Source: Bacillota bacterium
GTDB lineage: Bacteria > Bacillota > UBA4882 > UBA10575
Assembly (NCBI GenBank): GCA_012735135.1
Contig: JAAYHY010000008.1
Span: 345-64,344 of the forward strand
Direction: 5' to 3'
Length of the DNA: 64,000 bases
The notes below the pieces were generated by a model. That model was not told the origin of the DNA. It did no database searches and was given only the letters and a program-made list of their open reading frames with translations. The first letter of the stretch is position 1. Each line of letters begins with the position of its first letter. Position numbers and translations under genes: made by a program. Below, one piece after another: positions 6,037 to 61,122 of the stretch.

Positions 6037-7566
6037 ATGCTTCGAGAAGTGCGTGTTGAAAACGGCGTTGTACGGGGATTACCGGCGGCGGATCCACGGA
6101 TTACGAGTTTCAAAGGGATTCCCTTTGCCGCACCCCCCGTTGGCAAGAATCGCTGGCGCGCGCCCCAACCGGCGGCGGATTGGGACGGCGTCCTGGAAGC
6201 ATTTCAGTTTGCGCCGATCGCGATGCAAGCCAAACCGGGGTTGGATAAGGATAATATCTATAGCCGGGAATGGCATGTCGATCCCGAGGTGCCCATGGGT
6301 GAAGACTGTCTTTACCTTAATGTCTGGACACCGGCCACCAGTCCGGACGAAAGACTCCCGGTTTTTGTTTGGTACTTCGGTGGCGGGCTGCAGGTCGGTT
6401 ATCCTTCGGAAATGGAGTTTGATGGCGAACGGATTGCGCGCCGCGGGGTAGTTGTTGTCACGATCAACTACCGGGTGAATGTATTTGGTTTCCTTTGTCA
6501 TCCGGAGATTACCCGGGAAGCGCCGGAGGCGCCTGGGAATTTTGGCCATCTTGATCAAAAATTCGCCACGGAGTGGGTACGACGGAATATCGCCGCCTTT
6601 GGTGGCGATCCGGATAAGATTACCATCGGTGGACAATCGGCGGGCGGCGGGAGTGTCCTGGCGCAGTTGACTTCGCCACAGAATCAAGGGTTGTGTCACC
6701 GGGCGATCATTCAGAGCGGAATCATCGCACCAGTGTACCCTGATAATCCGCTGCCGCCACGCGGACAGGCGCTGGCCGAGGCGGAAAAGGACGGTGTGCG
6801 GTTTTTTGAGGCGCTGGGGGTATCTTCGCTAGAGGAGGCCCGGGCGTTAGATGCAGAATATGTCATGGCCAAGGCCCTCGAGTATGGGGGTTTTTGGGGC
6901 ACGGTGATTGACGGTAAATTCTGTGTCGGTAACCCCTTCGAGCTGTTCTTGGATCACAAACGTTTGTCCGTGCCGGTGCTCATGGGTCATACCTCGTCCG
7001 AGTTCTTCCACCGGCCGCAGGTGGAGACGGAAGATCAATTGCAGGATCTGGCGGTTAAGATGTTTGGCGAGGATGCCGGCGAGTTTCTGGCGCTCTGTCA
7101 GTCTCGGGCGGGGAGGATTGATGAAGTATTGGACCGGGCCGCGGTCAACAGTATAGAATATGCGATTCATCTTGCCGGTAAGGTCCATGATCCTAGTGTC
7201 AATCCCCCGTTGTATTATTATGTCTTTGATGCGGAAATCCCCGGATGGGATAATCCCGGCACCTTCCATTCGGTGGATCTCTGGTTCTTTTTCGAGACTT
7301 TGGCCAAGTGTTGGCGGCCGTTTGTAGGTAAACACTATGATCTGGCCCGGCAGATGTGTAACTATTGGGCTAATTTCATCAAGACCGGCGATCCCAATGG
7401 CCAAGATGCGACCGGAGAAGAGATGCCCCGGTGGTATCCATATACTCCGGAGGAACCCTATGCCATGGTCTTTCGTGACCGGCCGGAGTTTATCAGAGAA
7501 AAACCCAGCGCCCTTCTCCAATTCCTTGTGGAGCAATACTTCAAGAAAGCGCAGAAGACCTTGTAA
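6037..7566 (+). CDS. Carboxylesterase type B (para-nitrobenzyl esterase-like)
   Basis: G.PFA.PP.G..RW..P, EDCLYLNVW and the GQSAGG serine motif. 509 aa. Confidence 0.9.
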   Translation: MLREVRVENGVVRGLPAADPRITSFKGIPFAAPPVGKNRWRAPQPAADWDGVLEAFQFAPIAMQAKPGLDKDNIYSREWHVDPEVPMGEDCLYLNVWTPATSPDERLPVFVWYFGGGLQVGYPSEMEFDGERIARRGVVVVTINYRVNVFGFLCHPEITREAPEAPGNFGHLDQKFATEWVRRNIAAFGGDPDKITIGGQSAGGGSVLAQLTSPQNQGLCHRAIIQSGIIAPVYPDNPLPPRGQALAEAEKDGVRFFEALGVSSLEEARALDAEYVMAKALEYGGFWGTVIDGKFCVGNPFELFLDHKRLSVPVLMGHTSSEFFHRPQVETEDQLQDLAVKMFGEDAGEFLALCQSRAGRIDEVLDRAAVNSIEYAIHLAGKVHDPSVNPPLYYYVFDAEIPGWDNPGTFHSVDLWFFFETLAKCWRPFVGKHYDLARQMCNYWANFIKTGDPNGQDATGEEMPRWYPYTPEEPYAMVFRDRPEFIREKPSALLQFLVEQYFKKAQKTL

Positions 7567-7674
7567 CCGTTGGGACGACGGCCTTTTTTGGAGAACCAAC
7601 CGGTTCCTTTGCGTAAGGGAGGCAGTGTTTCGGGGAGCAACGCCAAAGGATGATGAAGAGCAAGGGGGGTTAGT

Positions 7675-11413: not shown

Positions 11414-12790
11414 TTAATTATCTTCCACAAAGAGTTGGACCGGAAAACCCACCAGCTTAGTGATTTTGCCGTCGATCTTCTCCTCTTCGGTTTCGGCAAA
11501 AGATTCCAGTTCGGCGAGGGCCGCCTGGGCTTTGTCCAGCCGTAAATTGCCGGTGGTCCCGGTGTAGGTCCGGGCTTTAATCGCCGTCTCCGGGTCGCGG
11601 GACTCCAACTGGTCAAGATGCAAGCCCACTTCTTTATAGGCGTCCCGGAAGGGCATCCCCTTGGCCACCAGTTCGAGGGCGGCGTCGGTGGCGTAGATCT
11701 CGGGCCGGAACCCGGCGCGCAAGGCTTCTTTATTCACCTGGACTTTACTGATAGCCAAATTCATAATCTGCACACAACCCAGGCCGGTCTCGCCCCCCCG
11801 CAGGAAGGGTTCCTTGGTCTCCTGGAAATCCCGGTTGTAGCCGGAGGGCAGGGCTTTGATGATGTTTTTGATCTGGAAGGCGCAGGCCGAAACGGTGGCG
11901 GATTTGGCCCGTAAGAGCTCCAGCCCGCACGGGTTTTTCTTTTGCGGCATAATACTGCTGCCGGAGCAGAGGTTGTCAGGTAAAGTAAAGTAGGCAAACT
12001 CGGGCATGGAGTATAAGATCAGATCCTGGGCCATTTTACTGAGAGTCAGGACCACCTGATCGACGGCATCCAGGATGATCGACTCCATCTTGCCCCGGCT
12101 GTTGTTGGCATACAAGACGTTATTCTGGACTTTGGCAAAACCGAGGAGCTCGGCGACGAGTTCCCGGTTGAGGGGTAAAGGCACCCCGTAGCTGGCCGCC
12201 GAGCCTAAGGGGGATTGATTGTTCAGCTGATAGGCGGTCTTGACCAGTTGGCAATCGTCCAGTAATTGTTCGGCATAGGCGCCGGCCCAGAGCCCGACGG
12301 AGGAAGGCATGGCGATTTGCATATGGGTCCGTCCCGCCATGGGCACCAGCTTATTCTCTTCGGCAAAAACAAGCAGGGTGTTGACAAGTTGGAGAATGTT
12401 TTTCAGGAAGGTTAGAAGAAAAGCCCGGGCGTAAAGGCGGGTGGCCACGATCACCTGGTCGTTCCGGGAACGGCCGGTATGAATCTTTTTCCCGGCGTCG
12501 CCGTACCGGGCGGTCAGGGCATTCTCGATGGCGGTATGGCCATCCTCATCCGCTTGGGTGATCGGAAAGCCTGTGCTGTCGTGGGCTTTAATGATCGAAA
12601 CCAGACCTTCTTTTAAGGAGGCCAGTTCCTCCTGGGTCAGGAGGCCGATACCGGCCAGCATCGTGGCATGGGCCAGGCTGGCCACGCAATCGGCCTTCAG
12701 GAGGCGCTGGTCCAGTTTGTAATCTTGACCGACGGTGAATTTTTCGACGAACGCATCAAGTTCGTAGTTTTTGTGCCATAATTTTCCCAT
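11414..12790 (-). CDS. argH: Argininosuccinate lyase
   Basis: Lyase_1/fumarase-family signature (GSSIMPQKKNP), TGRSRNDQV, and 458 aa. It lies directly downstream of argG with a 2-nt gap. Confidence 0.95.
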   Translation of the reverse strand: MGKLWHKNYELDAFVEKFTVGQDYKLDQRLLKADCVASLAHATMLAGIGLLTQEELASLKEGLVSIIKAHDSTGFPITQADEDGHTAIENALTARYGDAGKKIHTGRSRNDQVIVATRLYARAFLLTFLKNILQLVNTLLVFAEENKLVPMAGRTHMQIAMPSSVGLWAGAYAEQLLDDCQLVKTAYQLNNQSPLGSAASYGVPLPLNRELVAELLGFAKVQNNVLYANNSRGKMESIILDAVDQVVLTLSKMAQDLILYSMPEFAYFTLPDNLCSGSSIMPQKKNPCGLELLRAKSATVSACAFQIKNIIKALPSGYNRDFQETKEPFLRGGETGLGCVQIMNLAISKVQVNKEALRAGFRPEIYATDAALELVAKGMPFRDAYKEVGLHLDQLESRDPETAIKARTYTGTTGNLRLDKAQAALAELESFAETEEEKIDGKITKLVGFPVQLFVEDN

Positions 12791-17683: not shown

Positions 17684-17742
17684 ACTAGTGTGGTTTTTGT
17701 CCCTGAAAAGAATTAGCGTATTCACCAAAAAATGAATATCTT

Positions 17743-17813
17743 CCCCAATATAATTTAGGCGATATGGGCCTAGAGTTTCTACCGAGCAACCGTAAATTGT
17801 TCGACTATTGGGA
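17743..17813 (+). promoter_or_regulatory. Purine riboswitch aptamer, guanine/hypoxanthine type
   Basis: CCAATATAATTTAGGCGATATGGGCCTAGAGTTTCTACCGAGCAACCGTAAATTGTTCGACTATTGGG matches the purine aptamer core (UAUAAU...AUAUGG...GUUUCUACC...CCGUAAAU...GACUAU). The P1 arms are CCAATA/TATTGG. There is a C at the specificity position before GACTAT. An NCS2 purine permease lies downstream. Confidence 0.85.
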
Positions 17814-17920
17814 GTAGTTGAGTCTACTTTTTCTTGTCCTGGCACGGGGTGATCTGTCTTCGGACTGGACCGGGAAAAAGAAAAGAGTAAAAGTAGGCTT
17901 GATTTCCCTTTTGAATTTAC

Positions 17921-29143: not shown

Positions 29144-29172
29144 TTGACCATACCGGTAAACTACGGTATAAT
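29144..29172 (+). promoter_or_regulatory. Candidate sigma-A promoter for the T-box leader
   Basis: TTGACC (29144-49), a 17-nt spacer, then TATAAT (29167-72). Confidence 0.55.
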
Positions 29173-29240: not shown

Positions 29241-29461
29241 AAAGCGGCAATGAAGAGGAAGTAGCCGGGCGCCCGTCGGTGCCAGAGAGGAAGGCCTGCG
29301 GCTGGAAAGCCTTCCCTGACGGCCGGTGAAAACCACCTTGGAGCAGATGGTGAAATAAGCCAAACGGGTGACACCGTTATTTGTCACGAAGCCGGGTCCT
29401 AGACCAACAAGGGTGGAACCGCGGGCCAGATTACCCGTCCCTTACGAGGGGCGGGTTTTTT
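29241..29461 (+). promoter_or_regulatory. T-box riboswitch leader, probable Thr (ACC) specifier, with terminator
   Basis: Stem I with a TGAAGA GA-motif, an AGAGA bay (29284-88), and a distal loop. GTGAAAACCACC contains ACC at 29332-34. The T-box core is AACAAGGGTGGAACCGCGGG (29406-25). The terminator is CCCGTCCC-TTACGA-GGGGCGGG plus T6 (29434-61). Confidence 0.85.
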
Positions 29462-29950: not shown

Positions 29951-30019
29951 TTTCACCCGGATGAACAATTATTTTGACCAGTATTGGCCCAACTTGGGCT
30001 GGACAGTATTTCCACGATA

Positions 30020-30103
30020 GTCGCTCACGCTGGCTTCCGACAGCTGGAACAGGTGATGATCATTCAAAGCCGGGTGAGTCGACAAGCAGCGAAGGTATTT
30101 TTT
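30020..30103 (+). repeat. Conserved structured intergenic element, copy 1 (5' of thrS)
   Basis: Aligns block by block with 39325-39406 and 54855-54993. 30020-36 pairs with 30067-83 (16 bp, 2 bulges). See findings. Confidence 0.5.
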
Positions 30104-30118
30104 GGGAGGAGGATTGTG

Positions 30119-39320: not shown

Positions 39321-39324
39321 GAAA

Positions 39325-39406
39325 GTCGCCCGCGCCGGCTTCCGCCAGGATAACGAAGTGATGTAAAGTTAAAGCCGGGTGCGTCGACTAGCGTCGAAGA
39401 CATTTC
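39325..39406 (+). repeat. Conserved structured intergenic element, copy 3 (starts 5 nt after the livF stop, 5' of the CBS-ACT gene)
   Basis: Same block structure as 30020-30103. 39325-41 pairs with 39372-88. See findings. Confidence 0.5.
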
Positions 39407-39517
39407 TAAATAGCGGAAAACACCATTTGGCCCGGCGGGAAGAATGCAACTCAAAGCGGCGTGAGGCGTAATTCTTGTGAAAACTCTGATCAAAAAAGAC
39501 GAATGGAGGGAAGAAAG

Positions 39518-41936: not shown

Positions 41937-43262
41937 ATGGTTTTTTCGGCGCTATCGGAAAAACTCCAGGAGACTTTCCGCCGTCTGCGTGGAAAGGGAA
42001 AACTGGGCGAAAAAGATGTGGATGAGGCCTTGCGCGAGGTTAAACTGGCGCTTTTAGAAGCCGATGTGAACTTCCGGGTGGTCCGGAATTTTATCAACCG
42101 GGTCCGGGAAAGAGCGATCGGGCAGGAAGTTTTAAACAGTTTAACCCCCGGCCAGATGGTGATCAAGATTGTCCACCAGGAATTGACGAAGATGATGGGG
42201 GAGAAGGCGGAAAAGCTAAAAGTTAGCGACCGGCCACCCACCGTATATTTACTTGCCGGTCTGCAAGGGGCCGGCAAGACGACGACCGCCGGTAAACTGG
42301 GCGGATTTCTTAAGAAACAGGGACGGCGTCCGCTTTTAGTGGCGGCGGATATCTACCGTCCCGCGGCCGTCAAGCAACTGGAAGTACTTGGCCGGCAGCT
42401 GGATTTGCCGGTATACAGCGATCCCGGCCGGGACCCGGTAACCATCGCCGGCCAGGGCGTGGAAAAAGCCCGGCAAACCCAGCGGGATGTCGTGATCGTG
42501 GATACCGCCGGCCGGCTCCATGTGGATGAAGAGTTGATGGGAGAATTGTCCGCGATTAAAAAGGCGGTGAATCCGGAGGAGATCCTCCTGGTGGTTGATG
42601 CGATGACCGGCCAGGATGCGGTTAACGTAGCCCAGAAATTCCATGAACAACTGGCACTGACCGGATTGATCTTAACAAAGCTGGATAGTGACACGAGGGG
42701 GGGCGCCGCCCTGTCGATCCGGGAGATGACCGGTTGCCCCATTAAGTTTATTGGTAGTGGCGAGAAGCTGGACGGGATTGAGGTTTTCCACCCGGAGCGG
42801 TTGGCTTCCCGGATTCTAGGGATGGGTGATGTTTTAACGCTGATCGAAAAAGCCGAGGCCAGTGTCGAAGCTGAACAGGCGAAGGCCCTGATGAGAAAGG
42901 TCCAAAAGGATGAGTTTACCTTGGAAGACTTTTTGGACCAAATGCGCCAGGTCCAGAAGATGGGGCCTTTGGATCAGCTTTTGGGTATGCTGCCGGGGGT
43001 GAAACCCAAACACCTGCAGGGGTTGGAGTTTGACGAACGAAGCATGAAGCATGTGGAAGCGATCATTCAATCGATGACCCCCGAGGAGCGGAAGATGCCT
43101 CAGATTATCAATGCCAGCCGGCGGCGGCGCATTGCCCGGGGGTCGGGCAGGACGGTTCAAGAAGTGAACCGGCTGCTCTCCCAGTTTGAACAGAGTAAAA
43201 AAATGATGAAGCAACTAGGTAAAGCCGGAAAAGGCGGGCTGCCTAAGTTACCTTTTTGGTGA
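41937..43262 (+). CDS. ffh: Signal recognition particle protein Ffh
   Basis: N/G domain (GLQG.GKTTT..KL, DTAGR, TK.D) and a Met-rich M domain. Confidence 0.97.
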   Translation: MVFSALSEKLQETFRRLRGKGKLGEKDVDEALREVKLALLEADVNFRVVRNFINRVRERAIGQEVLNSLTPGQMVIKIVHQELTKMMGEKAEKLKVSDRPPTVYLLAGLQGAGKTTTAGKLGGFLKKQGRRPLLVAADIYRPAAVKQLEVLGRQLDLPVYSDPGRDPVTIAGQGVEKARQTQRDVVIVDTAGRLHVDEELMGELSAIKKAVNPEEILLVVDAMTGQDAVNVAQKFHEQLALTGLILTKLDSDTRGGAALSIREMTGCPIKFIGSGEKLDGIEVFHPERLASRILGMGDVLTLIEKAEASVEAEQAKALMRKVQKDEFTLEDFLDQMRQVQKMGPLDQLLGMLPGVKPKHLQGLEFDERSMKHVEAIIQSMTPEERKMPQIINASRRRRIARGSGRTVQEVNRLLSQFEQSKKMMKQLGKAGKGGLPKLPFW

Positions 43263-54830: not shown

Positions 54831-54854
54831 CAAACGAAGGACTGTTCATAGGTA

Positions 54855-54993
54855 ATCGCTCCCGTCGGCTTCCAAACCGCTCACACCAGCTTTATTTACG
54901 AAGTAAATAGACCAAAGCTGAATGAGCCGGCCAGCTGTCCTGTAAGATGATAAGGCAAAGCCCGGTGAGTCGAAAAACAGCGTAAGTATTTTC
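54855..54993 (+). repeat. Conserved structured intergenic element, copy 2 (5' of mreB), with a 54-nt hairpin insertion
   Basis: Blocks A and C, the GATGA box and the tail are shared with 30020-30103 and 39325-39406. 54877-54930 is an inserted hairpin of about 20 bp. See findings. Confidence 0.5.
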
Positions 54994-55037
54994 TATGTAA
55001 CGTCCACTTAATATTTTTCAACCGGAGGGAAAAATTG

Positions 55038-60321: not shown

Positions 60322-61122
60322 ATGGCTGGACGCGTAGTTGTTGTTACTTCCGGCAAAGGAGGAGTCGGGAAGACCACGACCGTAGCGAATCTTGGGACCG
60401 GGTTGGCTTTACGCCACAAAAAAGTGGTCATGATCGATGCCGATATTGGCCTGCGTAATCTGGACGTGGTGATGGGACTGGAGAACCGGATCATTTACGA
60501 CCTGGTGGATGTGGCGGAAAAAACTTGCCGTTCGATAAATAAAGCATTAATTAAAGATAAAAGACTGAGCAATCTTTTTCTGCTGCCGGCGGCGCAGACC
60601 CGGAATAAGGATGCGGTTACCCCTGAGCAGATGATCGAGATCGTTGAGGCGTTAAAAGATGAGTTTGATTATATTCTTATCGACTGCCCGGCCGGGATTG
60701 AACGGGGTTTTGACAACGCGGTGGCGGCCGCCACGGAAGCGATTGTGGTGACGACTCCCGAGGTCTCGGCGGTGCGGGATGCCGACCGGATTATCGGTTT
60801 GTTACAGGAGAAAGAGCTTTATGAGCCGACCCTGATTCTAAACCGTCTCCGCCCCGATATGGTGAGAAAGGGCGATATGATGGATGTGGATGATATCAAT
60901 GACATCTTGGCCATTAAACTCTTGGGGATAGTGCCCGATGATGAAGAGATTATTATCTCCACCAATAAAGGGGAACCGGCTGTCTTAAATAACCATTCGA
61001 AAGCAGGAGAAGCTTTCCGTAATATTGTCCGGCGGATAGAAGGGGAAGAGGTTCCTTTCATGTCGATGGGCGGTGAACCAGGACTCTTCGGCCGGTTTCT
61101 AAAGATGATGCATGGAAAATAA
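60322..61122 (+). CDS. minD: Septum site-determining ATPase MinD
   Basis: Deviant Walker A SGKGGVGKTT, DCPAG, and a C-terminal amphipathic helix. Confidence 0.96.
   Translation: MAGRVVVVTSGKGGVGKTTTVANLGTGLALRHKKVVMIDADIGLRNLDVVMGLENRIIYDLVDVAEKTCRSINKALIKDKRLSNLFLLPAAQTRNKDAVTPEQMIEIVEALKDEFDYILIDCPAGIERGFDNAVAAATEAIVVTTPEVSAVRDADRIIGLLQEKELYEPTLILNRLRPDMVRKGDMMDVDDINDILAIKLLGIVPDDEEIIISTNKGEPAVLNNHSKAGEAFRNIVRRIEGEEVPFMSMGGEPGLFGRFLKMMHGK

Follow-up and report, generated by a model that had tools for sequence, protein, structure and literature searches.

BOX and RUP of Streptococcus pneumoniae and bcr1 of the Bacillus cereus group are intergenic, multi-copy hairpin elements of about 100 nt that are co-transcribed with their neighbours, a description that would likewise fit the element reported here; they are built from TIR/TSD or modular boxes, with no GTAG-tagged single hairpin, and show no sequence similarity to it. 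In GTAG REPs the defining grammar is a GTAG lying 5' of an imperfect palindrome (Di Nocera 2013, PMC3733652; Quentin 2018, PMC6006769), and the Y1 transposase TnpAREP of Escherichia coli requires both the GTAG and a stem mismatch for binding and cleavage (Ton-Hoang 2012, PMC3333891). Y1 transposition acts on the lagging-strand template, so that a strand bias is expected (PMC6006769). Head-to-tail arrays are rare among classical REPs (PMC3733652), and the same survey reports roles of REPs at the RNA level, as intercistronic hairpins. Group 1 RAYTs have been reported in Clostridia (PMC5581495), and neither of the two REP surveys checked contains the words Firmicutes or Clostridi-.

The window analysed here, a 64-kb stretch of DNA from a Bacillota bacterium, had been described in an earlier note as containing three plus-strand intergenic segments that share blocks of sequence. 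These segments align block by block with a mean column identity of 62-63%, conservation lying mainly in the stem arms, and R1, a covariance model derived from the three, picks out precisely these copies in the window, all on the plus strand and at 88-107 bits, with the next match at 17 bits. A broader model built from 61 relatives (R2) again recovers only the three copies, a density of three per 64 kb. They are located as follows.

30016-30104, plus strand: copy 1, in the spacer between the NUDIX gene and thrS (106.9 bits with R1, 87.7 bits with R2)
39321-39409, plus strand: copy 2, in the spacer between a livF-type ABC ATPase gene and a CBS/ACT gene, its first base 1 nt past the livF stop (98.6 bits with R1, 83.3 bits with R2)
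54851-54995, plus strand: copy 3, in the spacer between radC and mreB (87.6 bits with R1, 40.5 bits with R2)

The identities of the neighbouring genes are Pfam calls on the same or orthologous genes and agree with those proposed earlier. The distances from the preceding stop codon are about 66-70 nt for copy 1, 1-5 nt for copy 2 and 21-25 nt for copy 3. The composite pattern GGCTTCC..GATG..AAGCC has three matches in the window against 0.04 expected, and copy 3 escapes it because of an insert in its loop. A match to this pattern at 42803, within ffh, was rejected as a fourth copy and is attributed to chance; 60658-60747, which scores 17 bits with R1, was likewise rejected, its support having disappeared under the better model R2. 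Copy 1 consists of a degenerate 5' tag, GATAG, followed by the hairpin and a tail, AAGCAGCGAAGGTATTTTTT, that abuts the thrS Shine-Dalgarno sequence (SD) GGGAGGAGG. Direct reading of copy 2 reveals stop codons that close all three frames. The sequence of copy 3 is identical in seven metagenome contigs of the same species, and strain variation at radC-mreB is hence uninformative.

The predicted structure is dominated by a long stem. The MFE and centroid folds of copy 1 reproduce exactly the 16-bp helix with two single-nucleotide bulges that had been drawn previously, and this helix is conserved, as are its two bulges. Its arms and the smaller hairpins found within the loops are listed below.

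30020-30036, plus strand: 5' side of the long stem in copy 1; G30029 bulges out (MFE and centroid folds, family covariation)
30067-30083, plus strand: 3' side of the long stem in copy 1; U30079 bulges out (MFE and centroid folds, family covariation)
30041-30055, plus strand: inner loop hairpin of copy 1, CA-G-CUG GAA CAG-G-UG, then AUGAUCAUUCA (predicted fold)
54877-54930, plus strand: nested second hairpin of copy 3, with element-like arms CCGCTCAC..AATGAGCCGG and the tip ATTTAC-GAA-GTAAAT (folds and sequence)

The outer stem of copy 3 is the same as that of the other copies, 54856-54871 pairing with 54958-54973, and its loop insert measures 56 nt. Relatives retain an inner NNN-GAA-NNN hairpin of 3-5 bp with differing sequences, the GAA tip being frequent. 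Across 55 distinct copies of the family 93.8% of the long-stem cells are paired and 11 of the 16 pairs have changed on both sides, values that none of 500 shuffles matched; sliding the 3' partners by 1-3 columns lowers the pairing to 24-40%. Entire sub-families carry re-coded stems, as in L073 (GTTGTTCATGCCGCCT/AGGCGGGTGAATCAAC), L112:7390 and L105:305. The pairing and the compensatory changes therefore indicate that the helix is real and is needed for propagation or maintenance of the element. The helix may matter as RNA or as single-stranded DNA. Mismatches within the stem comprise 14 G.T and 11 A.C, counts that are uninformative as a test of RNA-level selection; with the two classes about equally frequent there is no sign of G.U tolerance on the sense strand. 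The fold energy of the window hairpin is about -27 kcal/mol, and the energies of the window copies are not unusual relative to shuffles (z of -0.7 to -1.7).

The GATGA box of the loop is common to the three window copies and many relatives, and in that respect the earlier description stands; the box is missing from several sub-families (L112:7390, L088:16, L093 and L116:11667), so that it is not a fixed part of the element. The same observation leaves the suggestion that GAUGA forms half of a kink-turn unsupported, and a kink-turn or box C/D-like motif was rejected since no partner strand could be placed and GAUGA is missing from sub-families that keep the stem. Rfam echoes such a motif solely through a SNORD44 match at chance level.

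Comparison of orthologous sites bears most directly on whether the copies belong to the genes that they precede. The window ThrS shares 100% identity with the protein of an uncultured Bacillota MAG and 91% with its counterpart in a Capillibacterium MAG, and the thrS neighbourhood was compared in six relatives with ThrS identities of 91, 87, 83, 82, 75 and 71%, the last being Hydrogenispora ethanolica. A NUDIX gene lies immediately upstream of thrS in all six, and larger parts of the gene order asd-NUDIX-thrS-psiE-DUF4015-livKHMGF-CBS are retained in most of them. The NUDIX-thrS spacer, which measures 168 nt in the window, is only 57, 28, 67, 5, 90 and -4 nt in these relatives, in the same order; neither R1 nor R2 matches there in any of the six, and the spacer sequences agree. 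At the livF-CBS spacer, which was read in two relatives, the window has about 155 nt against 109 nt in L128 (Capillibacterium) and 40 nt in L129, and again neither model matches. The thrS SD GGGAGGAGGAT occurs in the empty Capillibacterium site too, so the SD is older than the insertion. The end of the element directly abuts this SD. Units of the family are present elsewhere in the same neighbourhoods of two relatives.

L130, 5481-5627, plus strand: units in the spacer that separates a permease gene from the F420-ligase gene
L130, 7139-7296, minus strand: two units between the F420-ligase gene and asd, antisense to both
L130, 15522-15584, minus strand: one unit before the DUF4015 gene, antisense
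L129, 130-368, minus strand: two or three units upstream of the NUDIX gene, antisense

Moreover, the Capillibacterium assembly that has the empty thrS site carries a copy at another place, between secY and adk (L018). This pattern of presence and absence across sites indicates a mobile or otherwise dispersing repeat and rules out a conserved thrS leader. It further implies that the copies before thrS, the CBS gene and mreB are insertions and not conserved leaders, and that the blocks that they share (tag, stem arms and tail) are shared because these are the conserved parts of a repeat family and not because of a common regulator. As judged from the compared spacers, the thrS copy is a lineage-specific insertion between the NUDIX gene and thrS, found in this species only.

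The earlier proposal that the element adds a second regulatory layer to thrS does not survive the six empty spacers. The operon already has a leader of a known class further upstream, as had been noted.

29241-29461, plus strand: Thr T-box leader (RF00230, 84.5 bits, E 1e-18)

Its score lies below the gathering score of 93, for which reason a default Rfam scan misses it. The leader is accompanied by a promoter-like site (29144-29172) and a terminator (29433-29456), and its specifier appears to be ACC within GAAAACCACC. This T-box, which lies outside the repeat, is the actual and the sole identified regulator of the NUDIX-thrS operon. At the gathering threshold Rfam returns nothing on the element anywhere in the window, the sole window match being a purine riboswitch aptamer at 17726-17827 on the plus strand (RF00167, 84.2 bits). 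With a cut-off of E<=10 for each copy only chance-level matches were obtained, all on copy 3 (SNORD44 at 15 bits and DnaX; E about 0.9-1), and the canonical, better-preserved copies of L130 gave no match at E<=1. The three copies are thus, as first reported, without a credible match to a known RNA class. Assignment to a known cis-regulatory RNA was rejected on this result together with the empty thrS spacer in six relatives and the empty CBS spacer in two.

No sigma-70 promoter is predicted inside the copies, and the TCGACA..TATAAT of some relatives was rejected as a promoter since its 14-nt spacer is too short. A scan of the three copies for intrinsic terminators found none; a terminator or attenuator was rejected, the U-rich tail beginning about 17 nt past the long stem.

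A structured cis-regulatory RNA, either riboswitch-like or a protein-binding leader, acting as a second layer of control on thrS, the CBS/ACT gene and mreB would account for the covariation of the helix, the sense orientation of all three window copies inside operons, the termination of copy 1 and of L018 at an SD and the lack of a match to any known family. However, the empty orthologous spacers largely refute it, the genes downstream of copies across the family are unrelated housekeeping genes, and about a quarter to a third of the sites are antisense to a neighbouring gene, four of them to both neighbours. Tandem arrays and many near-identical copies are also against it, as are the loss of loop motifs such as GAUGA in sub-families and the want of any sign of G.U tolerance in the G.T and A.C counts. 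This explanation is accordingly regarded as highly improbable.

Searches beyond the window show how widely the family is distributed. A scan with the exact pattern of one genome per species yielded mostly chance matches and, after filtering with the covariance model, four true copies, three in the Bacillota bacterium UBA11021 and the one in the Capillibacterium MAG between secY and adk. The same kind of scan of metagenomes yielded 54 loci, mostly from three related fermentation metagenomes, in which R1 identified 61 copies. The total of 61 + 4 copies corresponds to at least 48 unique sites once loci assembled twice are removed. Arrays of 2-3 units, often head-to-tail, occupy 11 of the 48 sites. 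Viral contigs that were scanned carry no copy.

Many copies in the family are near-identical to each other (GGTAGTCGCTCACGCTGGCTACC...AGCCAGGTGAGTCGACAAGCC). Head-to-tail joining of units into composites is frequent: the hairpin GTCGCTCAC..GTGAGTCGAC comes first, a related one, GTTGTTCAC..GTGAATCAAC, comes next, and GGCTATTTTCTA closes the composite. The copies are typically placed directly after a stop codon or directly before an SD, and the adjacent genes are ordinary housekeeping genes, for example those encoding a solute-binding protein, RecQ, LeuA, a PHP-domain protein and a phosphoribosyltransferase. None of the copies in the fetched loci lies inside a long ORF. The earlier note had held that many near-identical copies in random orientation or inside genes would mean a simple dispersed repeat; near-identical copies in both orientations are what was largely found, although none is inside a gene. 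Its preference for a constrained structure over a spread repeat is only partly supported, in that the helix is constrained (93.8% paired, 11 of 16 pairs, none of 500 shuffles) but belongs to a repeat dispersed over at least 48 sites. That the element is a dispersed repeat is accordingly held with little doubt.

Several further features of these loci were recorded. Near-identical copies are found on the fermentation metagenome contigs L067-L116, which differ in coverage and span GC contents of 0.38 to 0.51, so that several distinct hosts in one community carry the family. A shorter sub-family, GGTAGTCGCCCACCCCAGC..GCTGGGGCAC, often trails the main units at array ends and is missed by R1 and R2 (L112 at about 7640-7671, L101 at about 13000, L116 at 11731-11790 and L129, minus strand, at about 60-130). 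In UBA11021 the locus L005 3020-3156 (minus strand), which is the same as L076 191-330 (plus strand), holds a two-hairpin composite unit that occupies the apical loop of a stem (UUAAGGCC..GGCCUUAA) of a T-box leader, between stem I and stem III; the downstream antiterminator region of this T-box is intact. Pairs of metagenome contigs show presence/absence breakpoints exactly at the repeat ends, which may be assembly artefacts. A 156-nt indel between two assemblies of one locus (L070 2871-3026 against L079 1247-1254) is flanked by direct repeats of the CCCAGCCCA type and is unrelated to the hairpin element.

The ends of the element are informative about how it may have spread. The unit of about 88 nt comprises a tag, the bulged stem of 16 bp, the loop with its inner hairpin (about 30 nt) and a tail of about 25 nt. 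The tag has the consensus (A/G)GTAG directly before the TCG of the stem, with G in 43, T in 48, A in 51 and G in 53 of 55 copies; in the window the three tags have decayed from this consensus (ATAG, AAAG and GTAA). The 3' tail reads AAGCC..GGC and then ATTTTCTA, and the left flank reads YTA (positions -3 to -1) or TTCTA, with T in 34 of 55 and A at -1 in 46 of 55. The 5' end RGTAG thus lies 0-4 nt from the stem and the 3' end ATTTTCTA lies 25 nt beyond it, and the two are not inverted repeats of each other. Direct repeats of 3-13 nt, constant in sequence and with the consensus ATTTTCTA-RGTAG, bracket the following arrays.

L113, 138-303: bracketed array
L074, 3951-4039: bracketed array
L109, 10705-10794: bracketed array
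Window, 54844-55002: bracketed array

Rare variants of the repeat recur at both ends of an array (ATTTCCCA in L113, CTAAGCAG in L074 and AATAG in L109), and the variants at copy 3 of the window are TA-GGTAA and TA-TGTAA. The occurrence of the same rare variant at both ends offers a clue to the cutting and joining of the element. In L130 the element at 7139-7296 on the minus strand is enclosed by the two arms of a palindrome rich in AT (AATTACATAATTATTA / TAATAATGTAATT). This arrangement, the unit in the T-box loop of UBA11021 and the nested hairpin of copy 3 (54877-54930) suggest that hairpin loops are preferred as insertion sites.

Some of these features are those of a classical MITE, that is, a double-stranded deletion derivative of an IS with a DDE transposase (e.g. 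IS630/Tc1-like, with a TA target) bearing TIRs and flanked by a target-site duplication. The left flank ends in TA and the element in CTA, and short direct repeats surround the arrays with rare variants paired at both ends. However, the true ends RGTAG and ATTTTCTA are not inverted repeats, and the bracketing repeats are constant in sequence and vary between 3 and 13 nt where a site-specific duplication of fixed length would be expected. Head-to-tail arrays are atypical of MITEs with TIRs, and there is no transposase gene near any copy, making an origin of this kind very unlikely.

The orientation of the copies relative to genes and to replication was tabulated for the 48 unique sites. The element lies on the same strand as the upstream gene at 30 sites and on the opposite strand at 14, and for the downstream gene the counts are 27 and 9; it lies on the GC-skew-positive strand at 32 sites and on the other strand at 16, an excess of the kind that Y1 transposition on the lagging-strand template would produce (PMC6006769). 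About a quarter to a third of the sites are antisense to a neighbouring gene and four are antisense to both. The bias towards the GC-skew-positive strand and the bias towards gene orientation are both about 2:1 and are confounded, and in the window the plus strand has positive GC skew throughout. The sense bias is therefore real but modest, and strand-specific insertion explains it equally well as selection on transcripts.

This confounding also bears on whether a selfish repeat is now used by its host at the RNA level, in the manner of the E. coli REPs, to shield the upstream mRNA from 3' exonucleases, to provide processing sites or to tune translation of the following gene. Such use would be in keeping with copies that are strictly extragenic, that show a sense bias of 2:1 to 3:1, that are sited just past a stop codon or just ahead of an SD and that form a stable hairpin of about -27 kcal/mol, and REPs are reported to act in this way (PMC3733652). 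The orientation bias, however, does not exceed the GC-skew bias (32 of 48), so that strand-specific insertion combined with co-orientation of genes and replication could suffice; in addition, no terminator-like site is predicted in the copies and the fold energies in the window are ordinary relative to shuffles (z of -0.7 to -1.7). Use by the host is consequently considered improbable as the overall explanation, and an added RNA-level role of the element, taken separately, is judged unlikely.

A search for a mobilizing enzyme covered about 1.1 Mb of fetched DNA. No Y1/RAYT gene was found there by a regular expression for HUH..Y or by tblastn with an approximate E. coli RAYT query, and all-against-all clustering of the ORFs of the loci gave only housekeeping families, with no recurrent transposase beside the copies. 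Mobilization by a Y1 (HUH) enzyme is thus proposed tentatively, by analogy with the GTAG REPs, and is rated at somewhat less than even odds.

The best overall explanation, to which a probability of about 0.75 is given, is that the element is a small, non-autonomous, REP-like dispersed repeat that may have been moved by a Y1 enzyme and whose effect on thrS, if any, is incidental. This repeat of a Capillibacterium-like Bacillota lineage has the build of an oversized GTAG-tagged REP element and would spread in the form of a hairpin of single-stranded DNA. Recognition of both stem and GTAG tag would fall to a tyrosine transposase of the Y1 (HUH) class, of RAYT or IS200-IS605 type, provided in trans, and cutting and joining would take place beside a YTA or TTCTA that resembles the 3' end of the element itself. 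Insertion next to such 3'-end-like sequences would explain the head-to-tail arrays. The copies in the window would merely be co-transcribed with their operons, and the RNA hairpin may incidentally affect mRNA decay or translation of thrS. Copy 1 is not a dedicated regulator of thrS, and any effect that it has on this gene is incidental.

Certain observations fit less well. The identity of about 63% and the conserved stem arms would also be expected from purifying selection on a function. The degenerate tags of the window copies, the size of 88 nt and the head-to-tail arrays set the element apart from classical REPs, and the sense-strand bias, the sense orientation of all three window copies and the termination of copy 1 and L018 at an SD also count against the explanation. 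A more ambitious formulation, which must be viewed as rather doubtful, is that no hairpin family of this GTAG-tagged, REP-like kind had been described before in a Bacillota lineage and that its features are large structured units, an insertion site that each unit recreates and that gives rise to head-to-tail arrays, landing in the apical loops of hairpins and near SD sequences, movement driven by a Y1 (HUH) enzyme and some copies perhaps co-opted as intercistronic RNA hairpins.

The practical consequence for annotation is that the hairpin before thrS should be entered neither as a novel leader of this gene nor as a candidate riboswitch, and structured-RNA motif-discovery pipelines should mask these repeats. 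The repeats probably fragment metagenome assemblies of these organisms, and the pattern of filled and empty sites in close relatives could be used to mark strains. The family would extend GTAG-tagged REP-like elements to a poorly studied, mostly uncultured clade of Bacillota (Capillibacterium, UBA11021 and related uncultured genomes), with a unit architecture and head-to-tail arrays that depart from the proteobacterial paradigm.

Among known systems, the element can be compared with the ends of IS200/IS605 and with their miniature derivatives, the palindrome-associated transposable elements. It resembles these in having hairpins near its ends on one strand only, a short conserved left flank, no terminal inverted repeat and a strand bias, and in its composite units two related hairpins face the same way, as LE and RE do. 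It differs from them in that most of its units, among them the three of the window, contain only one hairpin and in that no parent IS with tnpA/tnpB is seen near the fetched copies. In IS608 the cleavage sites of LE and RE are distinct, whereas here the left flank and the right end share sequence.

Compared with the GTAG REPs, REPINs and BIMEs of Proteobacteria, which are mobilized by RAYTs, the element is set apart by its Bacillota host, with no RAYT gene linked to it, by a unit of about 88 nt where REPs have 20-40 nt, by its 30-nt loop with an inner hairpin and conserved 25-nt 3' tail, and by clusters that run head-to-tail where those of REPs run head-to-head or tail-to-tail. The likenesses are equally specific. 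The palindrome is imperfect and bulged and is immediately preceded on its 5' side by a GTAG (the criterion for REPs being GT[AG]G 0-2 nt from the hairpin), complementary changes in a 16-bp stem distinguish the sub-families (the criterion for REPs being 7-20 bp with a mismatch or bulge), the copies are multiple, extragenic, often clustered and mostly between co-directional genes, and relatives show insertion polymorphism. Membership of the REP/RAYT system is on these grounds a well-founded resemblance and not a demonstrated fact, and the architecture of the element, although not its size, fits the 'second stem' REP grammar (PMC6006769).
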